A stretch of 36,433 nucleotides of DNA from Eubacteriales bacterium (GTDB lineage: Bacteria > Bacillota > Clostridia > Oscillospirales > CAG-272), in contig JAZRCQ010000294.1 of NCBI GenBank assembly GCA_045659845.1, positions 1 through 36,433 on the forward strand, read 5' to 3'. Within the stretch, counting starts at the first letter, position 1. Every line of letters starts with the position of its first letter. The translations under genes were made by a program, and so were the position numbers. The notes below the pieces were generated by a model. The model saw only the letters and a list, made by a program, of their open reading frames with translations, ran no database searches and was not told the origin of the DNA. Below are positions 2,052 to 36,433 of the stretch, in pieces.

Positions 2052-2483
2052 TCAGAGCTTTTTAATATCGTCCTCGGAGATCATTCTGAAGCCTGCGGCC
2101 GTCAAGGCAGCCTCAGCCACTGCATTGTCCTCCACTCGCAGCACCACGTAGGCATGCCGCTCGGTGCGCGCCATGAAGGCATACATATATTCCACGTTGA
2201 TATCCTCCCGATCCAGCACGGAAAGAGCCTCGGTGAGCTTGCCGGGAGCATCCCCGATCTTCACGCCCACCACGTCGATCACCTTGATCAGATAGCCCTT
2301 TTTCGCAAGCACGGCCTCAGCGGTCTCCGGATCATTCACGATCAGGCGCAGGATTCCGAAATCCTGCGTTTCCGCAATGGAAAGTGCTCTCAGGTTCACT
2401 CCACAATCGGAAAGTGCCTCGGTAACCGATGCCACCGTTCCCTTTTTGTTCTGAACGAACACCGTTAATTGCTTGATTGCCAT
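2052..2483 (-). CDS. ACT-domain protein (tandem ACT, small-ligand/amino-acid-binding regulatory fold)
   Basis: Start moved to MAIKQLTVFVQNKKGTVASV (cat 2481-2483), with an AGGAGA RBS at complement 2491-2496. Two ACT-like repeats are present (LTVFVQNKKGTVA... and VVGVKIGDAPGKL...). The longer ORF-track N-terminus overlaps paaK and has no RBS. Confidence 0.8.
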   Translation of the reverse strand: MAIKQLTVFVQNKKGTVASVTEALSDCGVNLRALSIAETQDFGILRLIVNDPETAEAVLAKKGYLIKVIDVVGVKIGDAPGKLTEALSVLDREDINVEYMYAFMARTERHAYVVLRVEDNAVAEAALTAAGFRMISEDDIKKL

Positions 2484-2499
2484 AGCTGCCTCTCCTTTC

Positions 2500-3810
2500 T
2501 TAAATGAGCTTACGCTTATCGACCACGCGAACGGCCTTGCCCTCGCTTCTTGCAATGCTCTTGGGCGGAACGAGATGCACCAGCGGATTGATGCCCAGCA
2601 TGGTTTTGATCGCATTGGCAAGAGATTTTTCCATCGCCATGATCTCGCTCACCTTATCCGTGAAGCGTTCTGCCGTCATCTCCACGTTCACGTCGAAGGT
2701 ATCGTTGTTCTTCACGCGGTCCACCACGATCTGATAATTGGGCTCATAGCCCTCCTTGAGCAGCACTGTTTCGATCTGGCTGGGGAACACGTTCACGCCG
2801 CGGATGATCAGCATATCGTCGGTTCTGCCCATGGGCTTGGCCATCTTGATCAGCGTGCGGCCGCAGGAGCACTTCTTGCGGGAGAGCACACAAATGTCGC
2901 GGGTGCGATAGCGGAGCAGGGGGAACGCCTCCTTATCCAAGGAGGTGAACACCAGCTCACCCTTGCTTCCCTCGGGAAGCACCTCACCCGTTTCGGGATC
3001 AATGATCTCGGCAAAGAAATGATCCCCGTTGATATGCATGCCGCTCTGCTCACTGCATTCAAAGGCAACGCCGGGGCCGGTGGTCTCGGTGAGGCCGTAG
3101 ATATCGTAGGCCTTGATGCCCAGCAATTTTTCGATGCTTTGGCGCATCTCCTCCGTCCACCGCTCAGCGCAGAAGATGCCTGCCTTCAGCGGCATATCCT
3201 CCGGCCGGTAGCCCTGCTCCTTCAGGCTCTCGCCCAGATAGGCGGCGTAGGAGGGGGTGCAGCAAAGAATGGTGGCATTCAGATCCATCATGAACTGGAT
3301 CTGGCGCTCGGTGTTGCCCGAGGAAAGCGGCAGCGTGAGGCATCCAACCTTATGGGAGCCGCCGTTCAGGCCGGGGCCGCCGGTGAACAGGCCGTAGCCG
3401 TAGGCCACCTGGCAAACGTCCTTCTTCGAGCCGCCAACGGCAACGATCGCGCGGGCGCAGCAATCCTCCCAAAGATCGAGATCCTTCTGCGTGTAGAAGG
3501 CAACCACGCGGCGGCCGGTGGTTCCGGAGGTGGACTGAATGCGAACGCAATCCTCCAGCGGCTTCGCCAACAGACCGTAGGGATAGGCGTCGCGAAGATC
3601 GGCCTTGGAAAGGAACGGAAGCTTGTGGAGATCGTCGATGCTCTGAATATCCTCCGGTCGAACGCCTTTCTGATCCATCAGATCCCGATAGTAGGCAACG
3701 TTTTCATAAACGTGCCTGACCTGCTTGATCAGCTTCTCCGATTGGAGCTTTTTCATCTCCTCACGGGGCATGGTTTCAATTTCCTTTTGGAAATAGCGTT
3801 GCTGTTCCAT
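2500..3810 (-). CDS. paaK: Phenylacetate--CoA ligase (PaaK-family adenylate-forming enzyme)
   Basis: 436 aa. N-terminal MPREEMKKLQSEKLIKQVRHVYENVAYYRDLM...LPFLSKADLRD, the SSGTTGR P-loop (QSTSGTTGRRV), YGLTE and RYRTRD motifs are hallmarks of the PaaK/CoF420-ligase-like subfamily. Confidence 0.85.
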   Translation of the reverse strand: MEQQRYFQKEIETMPREEMKKLQSEKLIKQVRHVYENVAYYRDLMDQKGVRPEDIQSIDDLHKLPFLSKADLRDAYPYGLLAKPLEDCVRIQSTSGTTGRRVVAFYTQKDLDLWEDCCARAIVAVGGSKKDVCQVAYGYGLFTGGPGLNGGSHKVGCLTLPLSSGNTERQIQFMMDLNATILCCTPSYAAYLGESLKEQGYRPEDMPLKAGIFCAERWTEEMRQSIEKLLGIKAYDIYGLTETTGPGVAFECSEQSGMHINGDHFFAEIIDPETGEVLPEGSKGELVFTSLDKEAFPLLRYRTRDICVLSRKKCSCGRTLIKMAKPMGRTDDMLIIRGVNVFPSQIETVLLKEGYEPNYQIVVDRVKNNDTFDVNVEMTAERFTDKVSEIMAMEKSLANAIKTMLGINPLVHLVPPKSIARSEGKAVRVVDKRKLI

Positions 3811-3865
3811 TGTTAAACACCCTTTCTGATTCTGAGCTTTTCACTCGATTTTGGCTCGGAGTGAG

Positions 3866-4164
3866 AAAACAAAAACGTCCTCCGCATTCCGACAGGGCAA
3901 GGCCCCAAGAACACAGAGGACGAGAAATATTCTTTCCCGTGGTACCACCTCAGTTCGCCGCCACCTCACGGTTGCGACCTTTTCAGGTACTGACATACCA
4001 TAGTTCTATGACGGGAACTCCCGTTGCATCCTACTACGGATCTCTCCGATTCAGCGCACTGCTAACAGAATGAATTCGAGAAGGACGCCCCCTCTGTCTC
4101 GCACCGCCCGACAGCTCTCTCCAGGTTCTTTCCAGCCTACTGGTTTCTGCTCTCCGCATTTGAT
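3866..4164 (-). promoter_or_regulatory. T-box riboswitch, specifier UUC (Phe), leader of paaK-ACT
   Basis: All elements read on the minus strand:
- S-turn AGUA at complement 4138-4141;
- AG bulge AGAGAG at complement 4115-4120;
- distal loop GGUGCGA at complement 4099-4105;
- specifier loop GAA-UUC-A at complement 4071-4077, followed by helix UUCUG pairing with CAGAA;
- T-box motif GAGGUGGUACCACGGG at complement 3937-3952, with antiterminator A1 GAGG/CCUC and A2 ACGGGAAA/UUUCUCGU;
- competing terminator CGUCCUC...GAGGACG + UUUUU at complement 3871-3924. Confidence 0.85.
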
Positions 4165-4170
4165 ATTCGC

Positions 4171-4199
4171 ATTATACCACCTTTATGCGCATCTGTCAA
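4171..4199 (-). promoter_or_regulatory. Sigma-70-type promoter TTGACA-N17-TATAAT for the Phe T-box/paaK operon
   Basis: Minus strand cTTGACAgatgcgcataaaggtggTATAATg. The -35 box is at complement 4194-4199 and the -10 box at complement 4171-4176. Confidence 0.65.
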
Positions 4200-4301
4200 G
4201 GGGGTTTCTGAAATTTTATGCATTTATTCTCTCCCCTTCCGCATCATTCGCGCATGGGCAGACCGTTTCTGCGATAAGTTGAATTTTTTTTACAAAATCG
4301 C

Positions 4302-4330
4302 TTGACAAAAAGAGGAAGATATGATATAAT
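4302..4330 (+). promoter_or_regulatory. Sigma-70-type promoter TTGACA-N17-TATAAT for the Leu T-box operon, divergent from the paaK promoter
   Basis: ttgaca (4302-4307), 17-nt spacer ending in tga, tataat (4325-4330). Confidence 0.65.
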
Positions 4331-4336
4331 GCTAAA

Positions 4337-4615
4337 TCATAAACGCGATGATGCGGAATAGTATGCAAAAGGATTCGCCTTCAGAGAATTGCCGGCCGGT
4401 GCGAGGCATGGGAAGAGCTTTGCAGAACTCACCGTTGAGCGGTTGCCATGAAATTGCAGAGTAGTGGCAAACGGGAGCTCCCGTCACAGAGTCAAGATGT
4501 GTCAGCATCGAAGGTGCATCCCGCATCGGGATGAAGAAGAGTGGTACCGCGGAAACACGAGGATCGGCGTTTTCGTCTCTTTGAAGCAACAAAGAGATGG
4601 AAGCGTGTTTTTGTT
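4337..4615 (+). promoter_or_regulatory. T-box riboswitch, specifier CUC (Leu)
   Basis: - K-turn GAUGA at 4347-4351;
- S-turn AGUA at 4360-4363;
- AG bulge AGAGA at 4383-4387;
- distal loop GGUGCGA at 4398-4404;
- specifier loop GAA-CUC-A at 4425-4431, flanked by helix UGCAAAAG/CUUUGCA above and GCGG/CCGU below;
- T-box motif AGAGUGGUACCGCGG at 4538-4552;
- terminator stem 4568-4605 (core UCUCUUUG/CAAAGAGA) followed by UUUUU at 4608-4612. Confidence 0.88.
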
Positions 4616-4660
4616 GCATCACCGGTCCCGAATTTCCAAGCTTGAAAGGAGCATTCCATC

Positions 4661-6049
4661 ATGAGACAGATCAACGTAGCCGACATCACCCTCAAAAAGC
4701 TTTCGGAGGATCGCGCAGTTTCCCTGCTGTTCCGCGAGAAATCCGCTATTGCCAATTGCGCCGACCGTCTCGGTGCAAACTGCATCGAGCTGCCCCCCGT
4801 GAAGAACGTGCGCGAGGATTCTATCATCTATAAGACCATTGCGAAAAATGTTCGGAGCGCCGCGCTGGCCATTCCCGTTGGCTACACCGCCGACGACGTT
4901 GCCGTTGCATGGGAATGCATCCGCGAGGCCAAGGCTCCCCGTCTGCAGGTGGAGCTTCCCGTTTCCACCATTCAAATGGAATACACCTATCACGTGAAGC
5001 AATCCAAAATGCTGGAAAAGATCGGCGAGCTGGTTGCCGCCGCAAAAGCTCTCTGCTCCGACGTGGAGTTCTCCGCGCTGGATGCCACCAGAGCCGACGA
5101 GGAATTTCTGATCGCCGCCGTGCGGGAGGCCGAGGCGAAGGGCGCATCCGTCATCACGATCTGTGATAACGCCGGTGCATCCACTCCCGATCAGATCGGC
5201 GAGCTCACTCAAAAGGTGAAGGCGACCGTGTCCGTTCCCGTGTACGTTCAAGTGTCCGATCGCGTGAGCATGGCAGTTGCATCCGCGTTTTCCGCCATTG
5301 CCTGCGGTGCCGACGGACTCAAGAGCGCCATGGCGGGCAAGGATGCTCTGCTGACGGGGGCACTCTCCGACGCCATGAATGCCTGCGGCGCGCGGCTCGA
5401 CGCGGCAATCAGCCTGAACAGCACCAATATCCACGCCAGCATCGAGGATCTGAAGGCAGGCATCCGCCATGAGGCCGATGAGACCGAGTCCTCTGAAAGC
5501 GAGCAGAAGCGGATCCTGCTGGATTCCGATTCCACTCTGGCGCAGGTGGCCGACACGGCCGCTCTTCTGGGCTACGAGCTTTCGGATTCCGATATTGGAA
5601 ACGTTTATAAGGCGCTGTCGCAGGTCTGTGCGCGCAAGGGTGCCGTTGGAGCCAAGGAGCTGGAGGCTCTGATCGCAAGCTCCGCCATGCAGGCTCCCTC
5701 CACCTATCATTTTGAAACCTACACCACCACCAGCAGCAATATCTCCAGCGCAATGACGCAGATCGTTCTGAAGAACAACAATGAATGCATCTGCGGCGTC
5801 AGCGCAGGCGACGGCCCCATCGATTCCGCCTTCCGCGCCATCGAGCAATGTGTGGGCCATCACTATGAGCTGGACGATTATCAGGTGCAGTCGGTCACCG
5901 AGGGCAAGGAGGCTCTGGGCTCCGCCTTGGTGAAGCTTCGCTACAACGGCAGGCTCTATTCCGGAAACGGCACCTCCACCGATATCATCGCCGCCAGCAT
6001 CCGCGCCTATATCAACGCACTCAACAAGATCGTTTTTGAGGAGGCATGA
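4661..6049 (+). CDS. 2-isopropylmalate synthase-like protein with degenerate catalytic motifs and an intact LeuA C-terminal regulatory domain (probable pseudoenzyme)
   Basis: 462 aa, with AAAGGAG RBS at 4645-4651. The HMGL-like TIM-barrel layout is recognisable (FSALDATRAD, ITICDNAGAS). The DTTLRDGEQ motif reads ADITLKKLSED, and the HxH metal site reads VQVSDRVSMAVAS. The C-terminal GDGPIDSAFRAIEQ...VTEGKEALGSALVKLRYNGRLYSGNGTSTDIIAASIRAYINALNK matches the LeuA allosteric/dimerisation domain. Confidence 0.7.
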   Translation: MRQINVADITLKKLSEDRAVSLLFREKSAIANCADRLGANCIELPPVKNVREDSIIYKTIAKNVRSAALAIPVGYTADDVAVAWECIREAKAPRLQVELPVSTIQMEYTYHVKQSKMLEKIGELVAAAKALCSDVEFSALDATRADEEFLIAAVREAEAKGASVITICDNAGASTPDQIGELTQKVKATVSVPVYVQVSDRVSMAVASAFSAIACGADGLKSAMAGKDALLTGALSDAMNACGARLDAAISLNSTNIHASIEDLKAGIRHEADETESSESEQKRILLDSDSTLAQVADTAALLGYELSDSDIGNVYKALSQVCARKGAVGAKELEALIASSAMQAPSTYHFETYTTTSSNISSAMTQIVLKNNNECICGVSAGDGPIDSAFRAIEQCVGHHYELDDYQVQSVTEGKEALGSALVKLRYNGRLYSGNGTSTDIIAASIRAYINALNKIVFEEA

Positions 6050-6055
6050 TCCAGC

Positions 6056-8515
6056 ATGAAAATCGTTTTTTCCACTAAAAACGTGAGCCGAGCCTCCTTT
6101 CTCGACACCTGCCGCATTGCTCACGACTACGGCTTCGAGGGCTTTGAGATCTATGATGCCGTTGGCGAACGGAGCGTTCACTCCGACAGCGTTCTGAGAC
6201 GCGACAAAATGGCCGATGCCAAAAGAAAGCTCGTCAACCGAAATCTGGCCGTTTCCGCGCTTCGGATGCCCCATCCCGTGGAGCATGCGGAAACCACAGC
6301 GGAGCTGATCCAAAAATATGTGGATATGGCCGCCACGGCAGGCATTGAAAACGTGATCGTTCGTGCAGAAGCCCCCGTTTCCTTTGCGCTTCTGGATGAA
6401 AAAATGGCTGCGGCGATCAAGCGGGCGGAGCAAGCAGGAGTTGGCATCCTGCTGGAAACCGTTGGCAGTCTGGCGAGAACCGAAAACGTGATCGCTATCA
6501 TCAATCACTTCGCCTCTGCCGCCATCGGAGCCTCCTGGAACGTTCGCGGCACCTATTTCGATGCGGGCGAAACCGCTGAGGTGACCATCAAAAATCTGGG
6601 CGCCTACATCCGCTACGTTCGTCTCGGAGACATGAAGGACGGCAAGACCGTTCTGATCGGCGAGGGCGATCTGGACGTGAAAAAGCTCCTCAACGCCCTT
6701 TCCTCTCTCAACTACGAGGGCTTCATCTGCGCCGCATGGAACGAGGAGATCAACGATGCCGACATCGTGTTGACTCATTTTACCAATTACATTTCTGCGC
6801 TGGGACGTGAAAAAAAGTCCTTTGATCACGCATACTATAATCGGGCGAAAACCGGCACCTTCGTATGGAAAAAATACGATGTGATCGAGGCCACCTTCGC
6901 CGACGTGCTGGACACCATGGCCGAACGGTATCCCGATCAGTATGCCTTCAAGTACCCCACGCTGGACTACACCCGAACCTACGAGCAGTTCCGCCGCGAC
7001 GTGGACGAATGCGCCGCCGCCCTCATTTCCTTGGGCGTGAAGGCCGGTGATCACGTGGCGATCTGGGCCACCAACGTGCCCCAATGGTTCATCACCTTCT
7101 GGGCCACCACCAAGATCGGCGCCGTGTTGGTTACCGTGAACACCGCCTATAAGATCCACGAGATCGAATATCTGCTCAAGCAATCCGACACCCACACCCT
7201 CGTGATGGTGGAATATTGCAAGGATATCAACTATAAGGAGATCATCGAGCAGCTCTGTCCCGAGCTGAAGGCGCTCCATCCGGGCGATCCCCTCTATTCC
7301 AAGAATCTTCCCTTCCTGCGCAACGTTGTGACCGTTGGCTTCGGCATGGACGGTTGTCTCACCTGGGAGCAAATGCTCTCCCGCTCTGCCCTCGTGCCCC
7401 GTGAGGAGGTTCGCCGCCGCGCTTCCCTTGTGAAGCCCGACGACGTTTGCAATATGCAATACACCTCGGGAACCACCGGCTTCCCCAAGGGCGTGATGCT
7501 CACCCATCGCAACATCGTGAACAACGGAAAGACCATCGGCGACAGAATGGATCTCTCCACGGCCGATCGCATGATGATCCAAGTGCCCATGTTCCATTGC
7601 TTCGGCATGGTGCTTTCCATGACCTCCATGATGACTCACGGCGGCACGCTCTGCCCCATTCCCTATTTCTCGCCCAAATCCTCTCTTGCCTGCGTGAACG
7701 ATGAGCGCATCACCTGCTTCAACGGTGTGCCCACCATGTTCATTGCTATGTTCAATCATCCCGATTTTGCCAAGACCGACTTTTCCTATATGAGAACCGG
7801 AATCATGGCAGGAGCAAACTGCCCCGCCGATCTGATGCGCCGCGCATCCGAGGAAATGAATATGCGGGAGATCATCTCCGTGTACGGCCAGACCGAGGCC
7901 TCCCCCGGATGCACCATGGGCGAGGTGAACGAGGATCTGGACCATCGCGTGGAAACCGTTGGCAGTGCCTTCCCCGGCGTGGAATGCAAGATCATTGATC
8001 CGGAAACCGGCGACGAGCTTCCCGACGGCGAAAGCGGCGAGTTCGTGGCACGCGGCTTCAACATCATGAAGGGCTACTACAAAATGCCTGAGGCCACGGC
8101 GCAGGCCATCGATGCCAACGGCTGGCTCCACTCGGGCGACATCTGCATGAGAACCCCCGACGGCTACTATAAGGTGACGGGCCGCCTCAAGGATATGATC
8201 ATCCGCGGCGGAGAAAATCTCTATCCTCGCGAAATCGAGGAATTCTACCTCACAAATCCCAAGATCCGCGACGTTCAGGTGGTTGGCGTGCCCGACGAGA
8301 CCTACGGCGAGGAATGCTGTGCATGGGTGATCCTGCACAAGGGAGAAACCGCCGATGAAAAGGAAATGAAGGCCTTCGGTGCCGCATCCATTGCCAAGCA
8401 CAAGGTGCCCAGATACTTCCTCTTCGTGAATGAATTCCCCATGAACGCCGCCGGAAAGATCCTGAAATACAAGATGCGTGAGGAATCCGCTGAAAAGCTG
8501 GGATTGAAAAAATAA
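6056..8515 (+). CDS. Fusion protein: N-terminal xylose-isomerase-like TIM barrel (AP endonuclease 2 family) + C-terminal AMP-forming acyl-CoA synthetase
   Basis: 819 aa, with a GAGGAGG RBS. Residues ~1-250 (GFEGFEIY..., GILLETVG, YIRYVRLGD, GEGDLD, GFICAAWN) resemble sugar-phosphate isomerase/epimerase-type TIM barrels. Residues ~270-819 carry the ANL motifs YTSGTTGFPKGV, YGQTE, GWLHSGD, GRLKDMIIRGGENLYP and the terminal GKILK. Confidence 0.78.
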   Translation: MKIVFSTKNVSRASFLDTCRIAHDYGFEGFEIYDAVGERSVHSDSVLRRDKMADAKRKLVNRNLAVSALRMPHPVEHAETTAELIQKYVDMAATAGIENVIVRAEAPVSFALLDEKMAAAIKRAEQAGVGILLETVGSLARTENVIAIINHFASAAIGASWNVRGTYFDAGETAEVTIKNLGAYIRYVRLGDMKDGKTVLIGEGDLDVKKLLNALSSLNYEGFICAAWNEEINDADIVLTHFTNYISALGREKKSFDHAYYNRAKTGTFVWKKYDVIEATFADVLDTMAERYPDQYAFKYPTLDYTRTYEQFRRDVDECAAALISLGVKAGDHVAIWATNVPQWFITFWATTKIGAVLVTVNTAYKIHEIEYLLKQSDTHTLVMVEYCKDINYKEIIEQLCPELKALHPGDPLYSKNLPFLRNVVTVGFGMDGCLTWEQMLSRSALVPREEVRRRASLVKPDDVCNMQYTSGTTGFPKGVMLTHRNIVNNGKTIGDRMDLSTADRMMIQVPMFHCFGMVLSMTSMMTHGGTLCPIPYFSPKSSLACVNDERITCFNGVPTMFIAMFNHPDFAKTDFSYMRTGIMAGANCPADLMRRASEEMNMREIISVYGQTEASPGCTMGEVNEDLDHRVETVGSAFPGVECKIIDPETGDELPDGESGEFVARGFNIMKGYYKMPEATAQAIDANGWLHSGDICMRTPDGYYKVTGRLKDMIIRGGENLYPREIEEFYLTNPKIRDVQVVGVPDETYGEECCAWVILHKGETADEKEMKAFGAASIAKHKVPRYFLFVNEFPMNAAGKILKYKMREESAEKLGLKK

Positions 8516-8538
8516 CGATCACAATCTGTGGAGGCGCA

Positions 8539-8970
8539 ATGTATTTTGACGATCTTCAAATCGGAATGACGGTGGACATTGATTCCACCGTCATCGAAAA
8601 AGAAAAAATGATGGAGTTTGCCCGCGTTTACGATCCGATACCGCTGCATACCGATGAGGAATATGCTCGGTCTACCCCCTTCGGCGATCTGATCGCCCCC
8701 GGCATGATGTCGTTTATGTCCCTGTGGGCAAAGTATCTGGAGGTCGATTTCTTCGGCAAGGAGCTTTTGGCCGGAAAATCCACCAGGATCGAATGGCTCA
8801 AGCCCGTTTATGCCAACGACAGCTTATCGGGCAGGGCCACCATCACGGCATTGACGAAGAGAAATGACAAAAACGGTTTGGCCGAAATCTCCATCTATGC
8901 CTACAATCAAAAGGGAGAGCCGGTGCTGACAAACGTTACGGAGGCGATCGTAAAGTGCAAGCCGAGCTGA
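8539..8970 (+). CDS. MaoC-like (R)-specific enoyl-CoA hydratase/dehydratase, hotdog fold
   Basis: 143 aa with a GGAGG RBS. FARVYDPIPLHTDEEYARSTPFGDLIAPGMM matches the MaoC dehydratase motif (D-x-N/P-P-x-H-x-D ... G-x-I-A-x-G). Confidence 0.75.
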   Translation: MYFDDLQIGMTVDIDSTVIEKEKMMEFARVYDPIPLHTDEEYARSTPFGDLIAPGMMSFMSLWAKYLEVDFFGKELLAGKSTRIEWLKPVYANDSLSGRATITALTKRNDKNGLAEISIYAYNQKGEPVLTNVTEAIVKCKPS

Positions 8971-8976
8971 TGCTCT

Positions 8977-8995
8977 GCGGAACGTGTCGTTCTGC
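8977..8995 (+). terminator. Weak hairpin after the MaoC gene (possible operon terminator)
   Basis: gcggaacg-tgt-cgttctgc forms an 8-bp stem with one G-U pair. A T-run (catttttttt) follows only after an A-run, so termination efficiency is uncertain. Confidence 0.3.
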
Positions 8996-9025
8996 GCCAA
9001 AAAAACATTTTTTTTGAAAAAGGTA

Positions 9026-9054
9026 TTGACAAATCCGGTTTTCCGTGCTATAAT
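9026..9054 (+). promoter_or_regulatory. Sigma-70-type promoter TTGACA-N17-TATAAT for the third T-box
   Basis: ttgaca at 9026-9031, 17-nt spacer, tataat at 9049-9054. Confidence 0.65.
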
Positions 9055-9060
9055 TTTTTA

Positions 9061-9348
9061 AAATTTGAATATCAAAAAAGACTGTGATGAAGAGGATCGG
9101 AAAGCAATGCTTCCAGAGAGTTGTCGGGCGGTGCGAGACAATAACAGAGACTTCCATATGATCTATCACTTCTGAGTCGAAGGACCGAACCCGGGGCATT
9201 CCCCTGTCAGTAGACTCCTTCCGTATTGCTGCGTCAAAGCAAAGGGCTTGTTGGAGTCCGGAAAGTGACGGAATTGAATTCCGTAATTTGAGTGGTACCG
9301 CGGGTGAATAGCTCGTCTCAAGGGTTTTCTTTTGAGACGAGTTTTTTG
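9061..9348 (+). promoter_or_regulatory. T-box riboswitch, specifier probably AUC (Ile); assignment uncertain
   Basis: - K-turn GUGAUGA at 9084-9090;
- AG bulge AGAGAG at 9115-9120;
- distal loop GGUGCGA at 9130-9136 (the block gtcgggcggtgcgagaca is identical to the Phe T-box);
- T-box motif GAGUGGUACCGCGGG at 9290-9304, with A1 UUGAG/CUCAA;
- terminator CUCGUCUCA...UGAGACGAG + UUUUUU at 9311-9348.
The 3' side of Stem I reads ...AUG AUC U AUC A CUUC UGAGUC. AUC-A (9165-9168) sits directly before the 4-bp helix (GAAG/CUUC) and the K-turn, the same layout as in the other two leaders. No clean AGUA/GAA S-turn is visible. Confidence 0.8.
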
Positions 9349-9413
9349 TTTTATTCAGATTTTCAAATGCGTAATCATGAACCATAAGGACAGAAAGGAA
9401 AGGGGTCACAGCA

Positions 9414-11714
9414 ATGGATTACAGCTTGAAAGAGGTTGCAAGAAGAATTAGGGATCTACGCGAGGCCAAGGGCTACTCCCCTGCCGAGCTTGCAAGACTC
9501 ACCGGCGTTTCCCTTGAGGATTACACGCTTTTGGAGGAAGGAAACACCGACTTCAGCTTCACCTTCATTTATAAATGCGCAAAGGCCTGCGGCGTTGAGG
9601 TGGTTGACATTCTGGAGGGAAGCAGCACCACCCTCACCTCCTTCGCCATCACCCGCAAGGGCGAAGGCCTCAAGATCCTGAAGCAGCACGGCGTGGAATA
9701 CAACAATCTCGCACCCAAGTTCAAGGAGAAGCTCGCCGAGCCCTTCCTCGTGAAATTCCCTTACATCCCCGAGGAGCAAAACGTGCCGATGAAGCTCAAC
9801 TCCCACAACGGTCAGGAATTCGACGTGATCGTGAAGGGCTCGCTGAAGGTGCAGATCGGAAGCCACGTGGACGTGCTTCATGAGGGTGATTCCATTTTCT
9901 ATAACAGCTTGATCCCCCACGGCATGATCGCCGCAAGCGAGGGCGGTTGCGAATTCCACGCGGTGGTTCTCAATCCGCAGAACGGTCAGGTGAGCGAGGA
10001 ATATCCCGAGGCGCCCTACGTTGCGGCGAGAGTGGCCGAAAAGGCAGAGGAAACCGCCACGGTTGCCGATCAGTTCGTAACCTCCACCTACGATGAAAAC
10101 GGCGTTTTCAACGGCATTTCCTTCAAAAACGACGATCAATTCAACTTCGCCTTCGACTGCGTGGACGCCATTGCGAAAAAGAATCCCGATAAGCTTGCAA
10201 TGCTTTGGGTTGGCAACGATAAGAGCGACCGTCGCTTCACCTTTGCCGACATGAAGAAATATTCTGCCAAGACAGCAAACTATTTCGAGTCTCTCGGCAT
10301 CAAAAAGGGCGACACCGTGATGCTGGTGCTGAAGCGTCATTACCAATTCTGGTTCTGCATGCTGGCACTGCATAAGATCGGCGCCATCGCGATCCCCGCC
10401 ACCAATCAGCTGGTGGAGCATGACTTCGCTTACAGATATCAGGCCGCCAAGGTGAAGGCGATCGTTTGCACCGCCGATGGCGACGTTTCCTCCGAGGCCG
10501 AAAAGGCCGCCGCTCAGTTCCCCGGCCTGCTCAAGGTGCTTGTTGGCGGCAAGAAAGAAGGCTGGAATGATTTCAACGTGGAAATGGAACGCTTCAGCAC
10601 CCATTATTACCGCACCGAGCAAACGCCCTGCGGCAATGATCCCATGCTGATGCTCTTCACCTCGGGCACCACGGGCTATCCCCGCATCGCCACCCACTCC
10701 TATAAATATGCGCTGGGCCACTACCCCACCGCCAAGCATTGGCACAACGTCAAAGCCAACGGCCTGCACTTCACCATCTCCGATACGGGATGGGGCAAGG
10801 CGCTCTGGGGCAAGCTCTACGGTCAGTGGCTCTGCGAGGCCGGGATCTTCACCTACGATTTCGATCGCTTCCGCTCCGAGGATATTCTGCCCATGTTCAA
10901 GAAATACGGCATCACCACCTTCTGCGCTCCTCCCACCATGTATCGCTTCTTCATCAAGGAGGATCTCTCCAAATATGATCTTTCCTCCATTGAATATGCC
11001 ACCACGGCAGGCGAGGCGCTGAACCCCGAGGTGTTCAACCAGTTCAAGAAGGCCACCGGACTCACCATCATGGAGGGCTTCGGGCAAACCGAAACCACCC
11101 TTTCCATTGCAAACTTCGTTGGCTCCACGCCCAAGATCGGATCGATGGGTAAGCCCAGCCCGCTCTACGACGTGGTGGTGCTGGATCCCGACGGCAACGA
11201 ATGCAAGACCGGCGACACGGGCGAGATCTGCATCCGCACAAAGGATCATATTCCCTGCGGTCTCTTCATCGGCTACTATCTGGATGAGGAAAAAACGCGC
11301 GACGCCTGGTACGACGGCTATTATCACACCGGCGATCAGGCCACCATGGACGAGGACGGCTATCTCTGGTACGTCGGCCGCATCGACGATGTGATCAAGT
11401 CCTCCGGCTACCGCATCGGGCCCTTTGAGATCGAAAGCGTGATCATGGAGCTTCCCTACGTGCTGGAATGCGCCATCACGCCCGTTCCCGACGAGGTGCG
11501 CGGTCAGATCGTGAAGGCCACCATCGTGCTGACAAAGGGCACCGTTGGCACCGACGCGCTGAAAAAGGAGATTCAGGAGTACGTGAAAACGCACACCGCT
11601 CCCTATAAGTACCCCCGCATCGTTGAGTTTGTGGAGGAGCTTCCCAAGACGATCAGCGGAAAGGTGCGCCGCGTGGAGATCCGCAAAAACGATCTGGAAA
11701 AAATGAAAAAATAA
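9414..11714 (+). CDS. Fusion protein: XRE-type HTH + cupin domain fused to a medium-chain (ACSM/MACS-like) AMP-forming acyl-CoA synthetase
   Basis: 766 aa. Residues 1-~65 form an HTH_3 domain (LREAKGYSPAELARLTGVSLEDYTLLEEG). Residues ~90-190 form a cupin (NSHNGQEFDVIVKGSLKVQIG...GDSIFYNSLIPHGM). Residues ~230-766 carry FTSGTTGYPR, TISDTGWGKALWGKLY, EGFGQTE, YHTGDQA, GRIDDVIKSSGYRIGPFEIE and the terminal SGKVRR, typical of medium/short-chain acyl-CoA synthetases. Confidence 0.8.
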   Translation: MDYSLKEVARRIRDLREAKGYSPAELARLTGVSLEDYTLLEEGNTDFSFTFIYKCAKACGVEVVDILEGSSTTLTSFAITRKGEGLKILKQHGVEYNNLAPKFKEKLAEPFLVKFPYIPEEQNVPMKLNSHNGQEFDVIVKGSLKVQIGSHVDVLHEGDSIFYNSLIPHGMIAASEGGCEFHAVVLNPQNGQVSEEYPEAPYVAARVAEKAEETATVADQFVTSTYDENGVFNGISFKNDDQFNFAFDCVDAIAKKNPDKLAMLWVGNDKSDRRFTFADMKKYSAKTANYFESLGIKKGDTVMLVLKRHYQFWFCMLALHKIGAIAIPATNQLVEHDFAYRYQAAKVKAIVCTADGDVSSEAEKAAAQFPGLLKVLVGGKKEGWNDFNVEMERFSTHYYRTEQTPCGNDPMLMLFTSGTTGYPRIATHSYKYALGHYPTAKHWHNVKANGLHFTISDTGWGKALWGKLYGQWLCEAGIFTYDFDRFRSEDILPMFKKYGITTFCAPPTMYRFFIKEDLSKYDLSSIEYATTAGEALNPEVFNQFKKATGLTIMEGFGQTETTLSIANFVGSTPKIGSMGKPSPLYDVVVLDPDGNECKTGDTGEICIRTKDHIPCGLFIGYYLDEEKTRDAWYDGYYHTGDQATMDEDGYLWYVGRIDDVIKSSGYRIGPFEIESVIMELPYVLECAITPVPDEVRGQIVKATIVLTKGTVGTDALKKEIQEYVKTHTAPYKYPRIVEFVEELPKTISGKVRRVEIRKNDLEKMKK

Positions 11715-14339: not shown

Positions 14340-14424
14340 TGGTGCGGAAAACGGGACTTGAACCCGTACGGTGTGAACCACACGCCCCTCAAACGTGCGC
14401 GTCTGCCAGTTCCGCCACTTCCGC
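14340..14424 (-). tRNA. tRNA-Leu (anticodon GAG), class II with long variable arm, CCA encoded
   Basis: Reverse complement reads GCGGAAGTGGCGGAACTGGCAGACGCGCACGTTTGAGGGGCGTGTGGTTCACACCGTACGGGTTCAAGTCCCGTTTTCCGCACCA.
- Acceptor stem GCGGAAG/UUUCCGC;
- anticodon stem CACGU/GCGUG with loop UU-GAG-GG;
- T arm ACGGG-UUCAAGU-CCCGU;
- discriminator A. Confidence 0.92.
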
Positions 14425-24611: not shown

Positions 24612-25106
24612 ATGAAGATCAGACCTGCAACCGAGGGCGATCTGCCCCGCCTTTTGGAGATCTACGACGATGCGCGCCGATTCATGCGCGAAAACGGCAA
24701 TTTGGAGCAATGGTCGGGGGGCTACCCCAATGAAGCCGTGCTTCGGGAGGACCTTTCCTTGAACCGCCTTTTTATTTGTGAGGAGGACGGCGAACCGCTC
24801 GGCGTGTTCTGCTTCTTTATCGGCGAGGATCCCACCTATCTGCGGATCTATGAGGGACAATGGCTCAACGATCGTCCCTACGGCGTGATCCATCGCATTG
24901 CCGTGGCCCAGCATCGCCGCGGCGTGGCCGCCTTCTGCTATGACTATTGCTTCTCCGTCTGCCCCAATCTGAAGATCGACACCCACCGCGACAACCTCCC
25001 CATGCAGCGATCTCTGAGCAAAAACGGCTTCCTTCCCTGCGGGATCATCTATCTGGCGTCCGGGGATGAGCGCATCGCCTACCAAAAGGAGGATCTTCTG
25101 CGATGA
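24612..25106 (+). CDS. GNAT-family N-acetyltransferase
   Basis: Start set at MKIRPATEGDLPRLLEIYDD (ATG 24612, GGAGGA RBS at 24601-24606). The acetyl-CoA-binding core reads VIHRIAVAQHRRGVAAF ... NLPMQRSLSKNGF. The upstream part of the 358-aa ORF-track entry is antisense to the DUF308 gene. Confidence 0.8.
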   Translation: MKIRPATEGDLPRLLEIYDDARRFMRENGNLEQWSGGYPNEAVLREDLSLNRLFICEEDGEPLGVFCFFIGEDPTYLRIYEGQWLNDRPYGVIHRIAVAQHRRGVAAFCYDYCFSVCPNLKIDTHRDNLPMQRSLSKNGFLPCGIIYLASGDERIAYQKEDLLR

Positions 25107-27701: not shown

Positions 27702-27741
27702 CCATCCGCTTCCTTGGGAAGCGGATGGGGGCTCTTTTTTT
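27702..27741 (+). terminator. Rho-independent terminator after the lipoprotein gene
   Basis: ccatccgcttcc-ttgg-gaagcggatgg stem (27702-27728), then gggctcttttttt. Confidence 0.7.
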
Positions 27742-34185: not shown

Positions 34186-34992
34186 TCAGATTTTTAACAG
34201 TTTTTTCACGTTCCCGCCGAGGATAGCCTCGCATTCCCAATCCTCCAGCTCCAATGCTTCAAAGAGCCGCATTTCATTCTGCGGATCGTGAAGCGGAAAG
34301 TCGGTGCCGAACAGGACTCTCTCTGCGCCGTAGCGGCGGATGATCTCCTTGGAGGTCTCCAACGGAATATAGGACAAACTGGAGGAGCAATCCACAATGA
34401 GATTGGGCTGCTCCGTTAGCTCCACACTCGCCTTTTCCCAGATCGACCAGCCACCGAAATGGGCGCCGATCACGGTGAGGCGAGGAAATTTTTTCAAAAC
34501 GGGCAACAGACGATTGGGATTGGACATATCGTAGCGGTAATCGCCCGTATGCAAAAGCACCGGCAGGCCCGCCTCCTGACACAGCTCGTAGATCGGCATA
34601 CAGCGCTCATCGTCGATGCAGAAGCCCTGAATATCGGGATGCAGCTTAATGCCCTTCAGCCCCAGCTGCAACGCCTCCTCAAAATCGGCTTTCTGATCCT
34701 CGCTTTCGGGATGCAGCGTGCCAAAGCCGATGAGGCTTTCACGATGTGCTTCCACCTCGGAGGCAATAAAGCGATTGATGCTTGCCACCTGACGGGGGGA
34801 CGTGGCCACCGACTGGACCACAAACCGATCCACGCCAACGCTTCTTCCCTTTTCCATCAGCTCTTCCAGCGTGCCCGTGCAGGCAGGAGGCTCACTATAA
34901 AAATTCCCCACGCTGATCGCCGCCTTGGCCGCGATCTTCTCGGGATAAATATGACAATGAGGATCGATCACCTCATAGCGATTCTTCCACAT
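34186..34992 (-). CDS. Amidohydrolase-2 family (PF04909-like) metal-dependent TIM-barrel hydrolase
   Basis: Start set at MWKNRYEVIDPHCHIYP (cat 34990-34992, AGGTGGAGA RBS). The HxH motif near the N-terminus, LHPD, VLLHTGD and the C-terminal LFGTDFP are typical of the family. Confidence 0.7.
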   Translation of the reverse strand: MWKNRYEVIDPHCHIYPEKIAAKAAISVGNFYSEPPACTGTLEELMEKGRSVGVDRFVVQSVATSPRQVASINRFIASEVEAHRESLIGFGTLHPESEDQKADFEEALQLGLKGIKLHPDIQGFCIDDERCMPIYELCQEAGLPVLLHTGDYRYDMSNPNRLLPVLKKFPRLTVIGAHFGGWSIWEKASVELTEQPNLIVDCSSSLSYIPLETSKEIIRRYGAERVLFGTDFPLHDPQNEMRLFEALELEDWECEAILGGNVKKLLKI

Positions 34993-35298
34993 CCATCGGT
35001 CTCCACCTTGTCGATTTTTCCAAAAGCATATCGGGTTCTCCCGCGCAAGCATGGATGGAAGAGAAAAAGCCCCAAAGCCTTCTTCGCAGATCGGCTTCAG
35101 GACGAGCTCCTTCGCGGTGTCACCCAAATTGCCGCTTTCAGCGGCCTCTCATCGGGCTCCGTGAAGCCCTTAGCCACGGCAATGAGGCGAGCCGTGACCA
35201 CCCACTTTCCTTCAGCGATCTGCTCAGGAGAGGCGCTCCTCCCCATCGGATCAAGCAAAAAACGGGAAAGAACGCTTCCTTCATCGCATTTTGAAATA
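34993..35298 (-). promoter_or_regulatory. ~300-nt structured leader of the amidohydrolase-metY-metA-ybaK operon (riboswitch-like, class unresolved)
   Basis: Lies between a consensus promoter and the first RBS. On the minus strand it contains GCGAUGA, the hairpins CACGGC/GCCGUG, GGGCU/AGCCC and GCCGC-UGAAA-GCGGC, and two T-box-like strings (GUGGGUGGUCACGGC and AAUUUGGGUGACACCGCG). I could not fit a canonical T-box Stem I, a T-box antiterminator or the SAM-I consensus. Confidence 0.4.
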
Positions 35299-35413: not shown

Positions 35414-35947
35414 TCAGAAGTCGGCGCCGATCTGCATCGCCTTGAAGTTGATATCCAGCATATCCGCACGCTTCGCGGAGATCACCTTTTTCAGGGCCGC
35501 CTCCACGTCGGATCTTTCAAACTGCTCCATCACCTTGAGGATCTTGCCCACGATGATCATATTTGCCAGCGTGGGGAAGCCGTTGTCACTGGCCAGACGG
35601 GTGGCGGGGATGGCATAGACCGTGACGTCCTTGCGCTTCACTTCCCTTTCCACCAGCGTGGAACCCACGAAAATGATGCCGCCGGGGGCAACGGAATCCT
35701 CATACTTATCCAGCGAAGGGAGATTCATGGCCACCAGCACGTCGGGGGTGTTCACGATGGGAGAGCCCACGGGCTCGTCGCCAACGATCACTCCGCAGCT
35801 GGCCGTGCCGCCGCGCATTTCGGGGCCATAGGAGGGGAGCCAGCTCACCTGCTTCTCCTCGATCAGTCCCTTATATGCGATAAACTTGCCTGCAAACAGG
35901 ATGCCCTGTCCGCCGAAGCCCGAAAACAAATACTGCACGGTGCTCAT
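35414..35947 (-). CDS. 2-oxoacid:ferredoxin oxidoreductase, gamma subunit
   Basis: 177 aa. FSGFGGQGILFAGKFIA......SWLPSYGPEMRGGTASC.V is the canonical OFOR gamma signature. There is a 4-nt overlap with the upstream beta subunit gene. Confidence 0.9.
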   Translation of the reverse strand: MSTVQYLFSGFGGQGILFAGKFIAYKGLIEEKQVSWLPSYGPEMRGGTASCGVIVGDEPVGSPIVNTPDVLVAMNLPSLDKYEDSVAPGGIIFVGSTLVEREVKRKDVTVYAIPATRLASDNGFPTLANMIIVGKILKVMEQFERSDVEAALKKVISAKRADMLDINFKAMQIGADF

Positions 35948-36433
35948 TCCGCCACCTCCCCGTTCTGCGATCTGTCCTTATAAACGCCCAGCGGATAGTA
36001 GGGGATCATCTTTTCGTCGATCCACTGCAGAGCCTTCTGCGGCGTCATACCCCAGTTGGTGGGGCAAGTGGAAAGCACCTCGATCAGCGAGAAGCCCTTG
36101 CCGTCCAGCTGATTCCGGAAAGCCTTCTTGATCGCCTTCTTGGCGTTCTTGATATTCTTCACGCTATTCACGGTTACGCGCTCCAGATATTCGGGGCCCT
36201 CCAGCTCGGAAAGCATCTCGCACACCTTCACGGGGTAGCCGCAATGGTTCACGTCTCTGCCGTAGGGAGAGGTCTGGGTGACCTGTCCGGGAAGGGGCGT
36301 GGGAGCCATCTGACCGCCCGTCATACCGTAGATTGCGTTGTTGATGAAGATGATGGTGATGTTCTCGTTGCGGGCAGCAGCGTGAACGGTTTCAGCCGTG
36401 CCGATGGAGGCAAGGTCGCCGTCGCCCTGATAG
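35944..36433 (-). CDS. 2-oxoacid:ferredoxin oxidoreductase, beta (TPP-binding) subunit; 5' end lies beyond the window edge
   Basis: The frame stays open to position 36433. It translates ...YQGDGDLASIGTAETVHAAARNENITIIFINNAIYGMTGGQMAPT..., carrying the GDGD TPP/Mg motif. The ORF-track start at 36324 is an internal Met. Confidence 0.88.
   Translation of the reverse strand, partial: YQGDGDLASIGTAETVHAAARNENITIIFINNAIYGMTGGQMAPTPLPGQVTQTSPYGRDVNHCGYPVKVCEMLSELEGPEYLERVTVNSVKNIKNAKKAIKKAFRNQLDGKGFSLIEVLSTCPTNWGMTPQKALQWIDEKMIPYYPLGVYKDRSQNGEVAE

Follow-up and report, generated by a model that had tools for sequence, protein, structure and literature searches.

T-box leaders for phenylalanine, leucine, and isoleucine ahead of acyl-CoA ligase genes in an uncultured Clostridia genome: a proposed regulon for salvage of fermentation acids into amino acids

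Why would T-box leaders, the switches that answer to uncharged tRNA, be placed in front of acyl-CoA ligase genes? The question is raised by a stretch of DNA of an Eubacteriales bacterium (assembly GCA_045659845.1, contig JAZRCQ010000294.1, positions 1-36,433 of the forward strand), hereafter the window, in which three T-box leaders with specifiers for phenylalanine (Phe), leucine (Leu), and isoleucine (Ile) each head a unit containing an adenylate-forming acyl-CoA ligase gene. In related loci, the specifier was found to go together with the ligase family, and genes for carboxylating and transaminating enzymes were found to adjoin the ligases. We propose that these units constitute a T-box regulon that salvages fermentation acids into the cognate amino acids, a reading to which we assign a probability of about 0.8. 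Many rumen and gut anaerobes need or profit from isobutyrate, isovalerate, 2-methylbutyrate, and phenylacetate. The reductive carboxylation of isoacids in rumen bacteria is reportedly a classical finding of Allison and Bryant, and isotope work of the 1960s is said to have shown the carboxylation of isobutyrate, isovalerate, 2-methylbutyrate, and phenylacetate into valine (Val), Leu, Ile, and Phe. To our knowledge, neither the genes for this process, namely which ligase takes which acid, nor their regulation has ever been pinned down.

T-box leaders and regulated genes in the window

The three leaders and the genes of their units are listed below.

2052..2486, (-) strand: ACT-pair protein, about 144 amino acids (aa), start MAIKQL (PF19571 ACT_8, E = 1e-24)
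2500..3810, (-) strand: PaaK-type (phenylacetate-CoA) ligase, 436 aa (TIGR02155; Pfam AMP-binding and AMP-binding_C_2)
3866..4199, (-) strand: Phe T-box leader (promoter 4199-4171; T-box 4163-3913; terminator and U-tract 3922-3866)
4302..4616, (+) strand: Leu T-box leader (promoter 4302-4330; T-box 4339-4583; terminator 4567-4606 and U-tract)
4661..6049, (+) strand: LeuA-like protein, a predicted pseudo-isopropylmalate synthase, 462 aa (HMGL-like barrel and LeuA_dimer)
6056..8515, (+) strand: fusion of an AP_endonuc_2 TIM barrel and an AMP-forming acyl-CoA ligase, hereafter TIM-ligase (Pfam; PRK12583, 668 bits)
9026..9353, (+) strand: Ile T-box leader (promoter 9026-9054; T-box 9075-9323; terminator 9310-9343 and U-tract)
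9414..11714, (+) strand: fusion of HTH_31, Cupin_2, and a MACS/MbcS-like ligase, 766 aa, hereafter HTH-cupin ligase (Pfam/NCBIfam; PDB 3etc)

In the Rfam scan of the window, the Leu leader was matched by the T-box model RF00230 at 4339-4583 (+); its score of 124.1 bits exceeds the gathering score (93 bits). A permissive scan covering positions 3700-9500 further recovered the Phe leader at 4163-3913 (-) with 87.1 bits (E = 1.5e-18) and the Ile leader at 9075-9323 (+) with 86.9 bits (E = 1.6e-18). All three leaders are headed by a sigma-70 promoter, TTGACA-17-TATAAT (12/12 match), with an extended -10 TG, starting at 4199 (-), 4302 (+), and 9026 (+), and all three close with a terminator hairpin and a U-tract. 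The 5' arm of the hairpin overlaps the 3' strand of the antiterminator, and in each leader the two structures share a CGUC(C)UC strand and are thus mutually exclusive. The terminator folds were calculated at -44.9 kcal/mol (z = -4.05) for Phe, -32.2 for Leu, and -25.5 for Ile, with z-scores ranging from -3.6 to -4.05.

The specifier loops read GAA-UUC-A (Phe), GAA-CUC-A (Leu), and AUC-A (Ile), each with a purine after the codon, and directly precede the 3' strand of the Stem I base and the UGAG/UUAG K-turn. The T-box sequence is GGUGGUACC or GUGGUACC, and the antiterminator bulge is UGGU in 3/3 leaders; a U in the variable position of this bulge pairs with discriminator A, as expected for the tRNAs of Phe, Leu, Ile, and Val. 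The third specifier was assigned as AUC because this triplet was invariant in 42 homologous leaders while the neighboring bases changed; readings of the same loop as UCU (Ser) or UAU (Tyr) were excluded in view of the invariant AUC, its variable flanks, and the UGGU bulge. The exact decoder of the CUC specifier is encoded in the window itself, about 10 kb from the Leu leader:

14340..14424, (-) strand: tRNA-Leu(GAG) (ARAGORN; Rfam tRNA)

The original prediction had described three units of promoter, T-box, and terminator here, with specifiers for Phe, Leu, and most likely Ile and with UGGU bulges throughout. Rfam, promoter, and fold evidence bore out the units in both position and strand, each spanning from the -35 box to the U-tract, and the specifiers were confirmed from the Rfam alignments, with AUC being secured by the homologues. 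The presence of an adenylate-forming ligase in each unit was likewise verified with Pfam and NCBIfam (PaaK, TIM-ligase, and HTH-cupin ligase). Two of the ligases had been recognized as fusions, and the fusions are indeed present; their partners, an AP_endonuc_2 TIM barrel in one and an HTH plus a cupin in the other, had not been identified, and the ACT partner of PaaK had been missed.

By family assignment, the protein encoded at 3810-2500 (-) belongs to PaaK, and phenylacetate is its proposed substrate. The adjoining ACT-pair protein is a candidate amino-acid-sensing partner of this ligase, and the PaaK-ACT pair was found in nearly all of the 80 metagenomic PaaK loci described below. The 819-aa TIM-ligase consists of a xylose-isomerase-like TIM barrel (approximately aa 1-270), which gave a weak PDB match to MJ1311 (E = 0.005), and a ligase domain (aa 277-818); the proposal that it is an isovalerate-CoA ligase is drawn only from its Leu specifier and its genomic context in relatives. 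As a side observation, a stand-alone AP_endonuc_2 TIM-barrel protein of 316 aa is encoded right after an HTH-cupin ligase in related locus L162 (202-1152 (+)), and therefore the TIM-barrel partner exists unfused too.

The HTH-cupin ligase at 9414-11714 carries an XRE-type HTH at its N-terminus, followed by the cupin and then the ligase domain. The whole ligase domain was aligned with PDB 3etc (E = 1.9e-197), which is MacsMa of Methanosarcina acetivorans, the closest characterized relative and an enzyme preferring 2-methylbutyrate as substrate (PMC10455477). The protein is proposed to be a 2-methylbutyrate-CoA ligase.

Specifiers, ligase clades, and linked enzymes in related loci

Approximately 165 related loci, referred to by L numbers where needed, were compared: 80 from a species-level TIM-ligase scan, 80 from a metagenome PaaK scan, and five found via context look-ups for homologues of the TIM-ligase and of the LeuA-like protein. 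The TIM-ligase scan, with one genome per species, gave at least 597 tblastn-confirmed relatives, of which the best 80 (68-91% identity) were used; these came from gut and rumen metagenome-assembled genomes (MAGs), all from uncultured Clostridia and carrying the labels Acutalibacteraceae, Christensenellaceae, or Oscillospiraceae. In the relatives, tblastn served to map the genes and an iterated nhmmer profile to map the leaders; selected loci were also checked with Rfam, and the specifier totals combine automatic calls with manual reading against Rfam alignments.

In the Leu operon, a T-box precedes the LeuA-like gene in 64/73 loci. The specifier is CUC in about 63 leaders, CUG in two, and CCC in one, i.e., about 65/66 for Leu, across 42-100% protein identity, and two relatives with only 41-44% identity in the LeuA-like protein likewise read CUC. 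The PaaK leaders read UUC in 14/15 cases. The HTH-cupin ligases were resolved into three monophyletic clades, and the specifier was congruent with the clade (Ile, Ile, and Val) in 51/51 T-box-linked genes: AUC in 9/9 tree members of the window clade (I; 11 leaders overall), AUC in 22/22 of the second Ile clade (c), and GUA in 20/20 of the third clade (b, Val). This pairing holds across deep protein divergence, and the leaders differ widely outside their conserved core. The tabulation of specifier against ligase family in relatives had been suggested as a check by the original prediction; its outcome agreed with the expected match and added a fourth specificity, Val, beyond the three in the window.

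The Val (GUA) reading was adopted because of its unpaired geometry, the UGGU bulge, which fits A73 and not U73, and the unambiguous GUC-A of L162. The alternative specifier UGU (Cys) was rejected for the Val group, since no pairing is possible between the purine that follows the codon and the 5' GAAG-A strand. Tandem leaders were observed upstream of the LeuA-like gene in L076 (8135-8338 and 8448-8577) and L070 (8065-8351 and 8476-8597), where a complete Leu T-box is followed by a partial copy that lacks Stem I and retains Stem III, the T-box sequence, and the terminator.

The neighborhoods of the ligase genes pointed to the reactions that would follow acid activation. In 31 loci, a P-loop protein and a 2-oxoacid:ferredoxin oxidoreductase (OFOR) with the gene order delta-alpha-beta-gamma are encoded directly downstream and co-directionally, and the gene ahead of this module is the Val-clade (b) ligase in 19 of them, the TIM-ligase in 10, and the ligase of the second Ile clade (c) in two. 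The alpha subunit of the linked OFOR (L081) scored 559 bits against a cut-off of 399 with the NCBIfam model for VorB (3-methyl-2-oxobutanoate:ferredoxin oxidoreductase, VOR). The most complete arrangement is that of L162, in which a Val T-box, an HTH-cupin ligase, the P-loop protein, VOR delta-alpha-beta-gamma, a branched-chain aminotransferase (BCAT), the LeuA-like protein, a TIM-ligase, and an Amidohydro_2 protein lie on one strand. The BCAT of L162 (481 bits) passed the NCBIfam equivalog cut-off of 307, as did that of L163 (466 bits). Both L163 and L165 carry a Leu T-box, the LeuA-like gene, a TIM-ligase, a BCAT like that of L162, and a single-chain OFOR of the pyruvate:ferredoxin oxidoreductase (PFOR) type; the latter linkage is to be taken cautiously, as this OFOR passes the housekeeping PFOR model. 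An OFOR operon is itself headed by a T-box in L127, where an Ile-specifier T-box (67.8 bits) precedes the genes gamma-delta-alpha-beta; a Phe T-box with PaaK-ACT lies 1.5 kb further downstream. In T-box-less PaaK loci such as L121, iorA (740 bits against 651) and iorB, encoding the indolepyruvate:ferredoxin oxidoreductase (IOR), are located immediately upstream of PaaK-ACT.

Two further observations concern these neighborhoods. The P-loop protein of 220 aa (L081, 2166-2828 (-)) is always encoded immediately before VOR delta, with homologues in at least 31 loci; it gave only weak ParA/CbiA/ApbC-like matches and may serve the linked OFOR specifically, as a maturation factor or a carrier of Fe-S clusters. 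Upstream of iorAB-paaK-ACT in L121 (351-3637 (+)) are genes for an acyl-CoA ligase and a sodium:solute symporter, which could form a pair for acid uptake and activation.

These linkages bear on the possibility that the ligases provide the acyl-CoA primers from which branched-chain fatty acids are made, at times when branched-chain amino acids, normally the origin of such primers, are scarce. The best NCBIfam model for the Ile-unit ligase is MbcS, and MbcS of S. aureus is a 2-methylbutyryl/isobutyryl-CoA synthetase that helps to make branched-chain fatty acids out of 2-methylbutyrate and isobutyrate (PMC10026030, PMC11167679). Induction upon Ile or Val starvation via a T-box would also fit a shortage of primers. 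However, the match to the MbcS model reached 447 bits against a cut-off of 850, and primer supply leaves unexplained the Phe T-box on PaaK-ACT, the co-directional VOR and BCAT genes, the Ile T-box on the OFOR operon of L127, and the partnership with a LeuA regulatory domain. We consider this explanation very improbable.

Three further genes of the window were considered in this context.

8539..8970, (+) strand: MaoC/hotdog hydratase-like protein (Pfam), co-directional with the Leu operon
34186..35127, (-) strand: Amidohydro_2 (PF04909) protein, homologues of which are encoded directly after the TIM-ligase in 21 loci
35414..36433, (-) strand: OFOR beta (partial, cut by the window end) and gamma (PF01558; translation)

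The OFOR beta subunit of the window is 78% identical to that of the L081 OFOR, and the enzyme, predicted to be of the four-subunit type, is likely the carboxylating partner of the ligases. A look-up of the gamma protein, aimed at sequence past the window edge, returned no match. Between its gamma gene and an operon of Amidohydro_2, MetY, MetA, and YbaK-like genes lies a fourth, degenerate T-box-like leader (35095-35293 (-), 42 bits, E = 5.5e-7), in which the bulge is UGAC where UGGN would be expected and the specifier could not be made out clearly. An Amidohydro_2 protein is also present in L162 (12894-13709); no NCBIfam match was obtained for the Amidohydro_2 proteins, whose family PF04909 includes non-oxidative (de)carboxylases. 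A MaoC-like gene was found elsewhere in only L056 and L088 among the examined loci and is not a conserved member of the Leu operon; its candidacy as a pathway member, including CoA-level isomerization of isopropylmalate, was therefore dropped. The window additionally contains two open reading frames (ORFs) of 859 and 830 aa (25103-27682 (+) and 27740-30232 (-)) with no significant Pfam family, the latter showing only a faint DUF6923 repeat match.

The LeuA-like protein and the proposed route

A Leu T-box on leuA is a classic case, and the first gene after the Leu leader is LeuA-like. In alignment with the isopropylmalate synthase (IPMS) of Listeria (3ewb), the catalytic motif DTTLRDGEQ was found to be replaced by DITLKKLSED and the HxH metal ligands by Q-V-S, so that the Arg for the substrate and the Asp and HxH ligands for the metal are all lost. 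The same motif loss was shared by 76/76 close homologues, which keep a D[IV]TLKKLS motif of their own. An exhaustive search of 1.84 billion representatives yielded 263 clusters at 50% identity (E < 1e-30), among which about 105 full-length members (455-480 aa, down to approximately 30% identity) all lack both catalytic motifs; the true LeuAs (about 500 aa) in that search keep TTLRDGEQ and HCH. No LeuA model reached its cut-off on the protein at 4661-6049. The LeuA_dimer domain (PF08502, E = 2.9e-31, aa 331-457) is the most conserved region of the family, and E107, Y108, K113, and D141 are among its invariant residues.

The view of this gene as an ordinary T-box-regulated leuA was rejected on account of the lost catalytic motifs, and its product is predicted to be a pseudo-enzyme (pseudo-IPMS) that keeps the regulatory domain, for which leucine binding is likewise predicted. 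The family is large and so far uncharacterized, its members being named by NCBI only as hypothetical or regulatory-domain-containing proteins, and its gene is located directly upstream of the TIM-ligase gene in 73/74 loci. The original prediction had stated that no canonical biosynthetic gene is regulated by these leaders. This overlooked the LeuA homologue, and it holds true in effect, the catalytic residues of IPMS having been lost.

It was also considered whether the Leu operon might make a leucine precursor by another CoA-dependent route, in which the LeuA-like barrel would act via metal-independent chemistry. The replacement motif conserved in the close clade and the invariant barrel residues, which imply that the barrel is under selection, are compatible with such an activity, as are a TIM barrel with no assignable function and the MaoC-like gene that follows in the window. 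On the other hand, ligands essential to all characterized isopropylmalate, citramalate, and homocitrate synthases are missing in the approximately 105 diverse representatives, the most conserved part of the protein is the regulatory domain, and MaoC is not conserved with the operon. Furthermore, the pseudo-IPMS and TIM-ligase genes are followed by VOR (10 loci) or by BCAT and OFOR, which are the needs of isovaleryl-CoA carboxylation. A separate route of this kind seems unlikely to us.

The salvage route that we favor would proceed as follows. By the T-box paradigm, we infer that uncharged tRNA-Phe, tRNA-Leu(GAG), or tRNA-Ile would base-pair with its leader at two sites, the specifier (UUC, CUC, or AUC) and the UGGU bulge, and that this pairing would stabilize the antiterminator to allow read-through into the gene for the AMP-forming acyl-CoA ligase. 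PaaK would then activate phenylacetate, the TIM-ligase isovalerate, and the HTH-cupin ligase 2-methylbutyrate, at the cost of ATP to AMP and PPi; isobutyrate would be the substrate of a sister ligase that relatives carry behind a Val T-box. The acyl-CoA would be reductively carboxylated with reduced ferredoxin, by an enzyme of the VOR type for branched acids and by IOR for aryl acids, and the resulting 2-oxoacid would be transaminated by an IlvE-type BCAT or an aromatic aminotransferase to give Phe, Leu, Ile, or Val. Because ligases of the AMP-forming kind work in the direction of the thioester and a T-box turns its genes on when the cognate amino acid runs short, the route is most readily taken to be anabolic. 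The anabolic interpretation given in the original prediction thus appears to be supported by gene context, namely by the link between specifier and ligase family and by the OFOR, IOR, and BCAT genes adjoining the ligases.

The opposite direction, a catabolic flow of the oxidative Stickland type from amino acid via 2-oxoacid and acyl-CoA to acid, with T-boxes that are coincidental or unusual in sense, appears scarcely credible. Enzymes of the BCAT, VOR, IOR, and PFOR types can run both ways, and amino-acid fermenters employ them in the oxidative direction, the porA work in C. sporogenes reportedly being an example of such use of an OFOR. However, AMP-forming, PPi-releasing ligases conserve no energy, and fermenters use phosphotransacylase and kinase, CoA transferase, or ADP-forming synthetases instead. 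In addition, a T-box that is on when its tRNA is uncharged is the opposite of a catabolic need, and the terminator/antiterminator layout is standard here.

In the salvage regulon as proposed, every ligase has a putative small-molecule-binding partner: the ACT pair for PaaK, the pseudo-IPMS for the TIM-ligase, and the cupin for the Ile and Val ligases. From this, we infer that ligand-sensing partners add end-product feedback. More specifically, and only tentatively, since we hold it at less than even odds, the paired sensors might form a second, allosteric feedback layer, in which the pseudo-IPMS gates the isovalerate-CoA ligase, perhaps by docking on its TIM barrel, the ACT pair does likewise for PaaK with Phe, and the cupin does so for the Ile and Val ligases, the fused HTH autoregulating at a conserved TTGAATAT motif beside the -10 box. 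A conserved TTTGAATATCA motif was observed at 9064-9074 of the window, between the -10 box and the T-box start. The motif recurs at the equivalent position in HTH-ligase leaders of L007-L056; it is present in 11/11 HTH-ligase leaders of the window clade and in some leaders of the other two clades, was not found in the PaaK leaders examined, and might act as an operator to which the fused HTH domain binds.

Several points weigh against the salvage reading. At the level of the RNA, the Phe and Ile leaders fall just under the gathering score, both being full-length (model positions 1-219); despite these sub-threshold scores, the two matches are far beyond chance, and homologues of these leaders exceed 93 bits (107 bits for the PaaK leader of L010 and 105.7 bits for L136). 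At the level of the ligases, the PaaK-like protein scored 514 bits over its full length on TIGR02155, under the equivalog cut-off of 646 bits, the Ile-unit ligase, as noted above, remains below the cut-off of its best model, MbcS, and no close characterized relative was found for the ligase domain of the TIM-ligase. The TIM barrel of the latter gave no NCBIfam match, and no role could be assigned to this barrel, the pseudo-IPMS, the Amidohydro_2 protein, or the P-loop protein. Within the 36,433-nt window there is no IOR or aminotransferase gene, and the OFOR lies 24 kb from the ligases with its upstream part beyond the window edge.

Among the relatives, two leaders carry off-family specifiers, namely UGC in the PaaK leader of L010 and CCC in the pseudo-IPMS leader of L040, and nine pseudo-IPMS/TIM-ligase loci showed no detectable T-box. 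Moreover, the sequences all come from MAGs of Clostridia that are related to one another, and the counts therefore lack phylogenetic independence. As to the particulars of these exceptions, the L010 leader (2636-2886 (-)) reads UGC-C yet keeps UGGU, the L040 leader lies at approximately 2541-2860, and both deviations may be mutations, assembly errors, or decaying switches. The T-box-less loci are L036, L037, L038, L041, L044, L053, L055, L058, and L073, several of which continue directly into the P-loop protein and VOR.

Comparison with known systems

If the assignment is right, the T-box specifier serves as an internal tag that tells which amino acid, and by extension which acid substrate, belongs to a given ligase clade, and the conserved neighborhoods supply the VOR/IOR and aminotransferase steps, giving a short list of testable genes. 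The candidate hosts are abundant, uncultured Oscillospirales-like bacteria of livestock and humans, which makes the system relevant to isoacid feed supplements and to models of gut cross-feeding. It would also extend the known reach of T-box control past synthetases, de novo pathways, and transporters, and it brings to light two unexplained ligase fusions and a large family of isopropylmalate synthase homologues that are predicted to be catalytically dead.

The leaders share with the transcriptional RF00230 T-boxes, such as those of B. subtilis tyrS and glyQS, a Stem I with K-turn, a specifier loop with post-codon purine, the AGAGA/GGUGNGA distal motifs, Stem III, a T-box with UGGN bulge, and a competing terminator, and, as in known T-boxes, specifier and operon follow a common amino-acid logic. 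They differ in their targets, which are usually synthetases, de novo biosynthesis genes, and transporters and here are acyl-CoA ligases, together with OFOR and BCAT in relatives. No link of a T-box to PaaK, acyl-CoA synthetases, or ferredoxin oxidoreductases was found in the searchable full-text literature, and CoA- or ferredoxin-dependent enzymes are unmentioned in the accessible T-box surveys (Wels 2008, Sun 2013, TBDB).

With LeuA, the pseudo-IPMS has in common the DRE-TIM (HMGL-like) barrel, the allosteric LeuA_dimer domain, and the position as first gene after a Leu T-box; it differs in lacking the catalytic ligands, in being about 50 aa shorter, and in always being paired with a TIM-barrel acyl-CoA ligase. 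The HTH-cupin ligase resembles MacsMa and MbcS in its ligase domain, whereas the N-terminal XRE-type HTH and cupin, the T-box control, and the linkage to VOR are found here, and MbcS serves lipids. The linked OFOR is, like VOR (VorABCD), a four-subunit delta-alpha-beta-gamma enzyme with a VorB-model alpha subunit; here it is always preceded by the P-loop (ApbC/ParA-like) gene and is linked to isoacid-type ligases and BCAT, and this ligase linkage and the T-box control are apparently undescribed.

According to Porat et al., as cited in PMC4162585, Methanococcus maripaludis converts aryl acids into aromatic amino acids via indolepyruvate:ferredoxin oxidoreductase. Its aryl-acid route and the widespread iorAB-paaK-ACT cluster resemble the system proposed here in chemistry, an aryl acid passing via aryl-acetyl-CoA and arylpyruvate to the amino acid, and in combining a PaaK-type ligase with ACT, and IOR stands upstream in many relatives, whereas the PaaK-ACT pair of the window is bacterial, detached from IOR, placed under a Phe T-box, and clustered with branched-chain counterparts. 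The physiology of reductive carboxylation, the M. maripaludis aryl-acid/IOR route, MacsMa, and MbcS are already known; the T-box regulon, the specifier-labelled ligase clades, the ligase-VOR-BCAT operon modules, the pseudo-IPMS family, and the two ligase fusions appear to be new.

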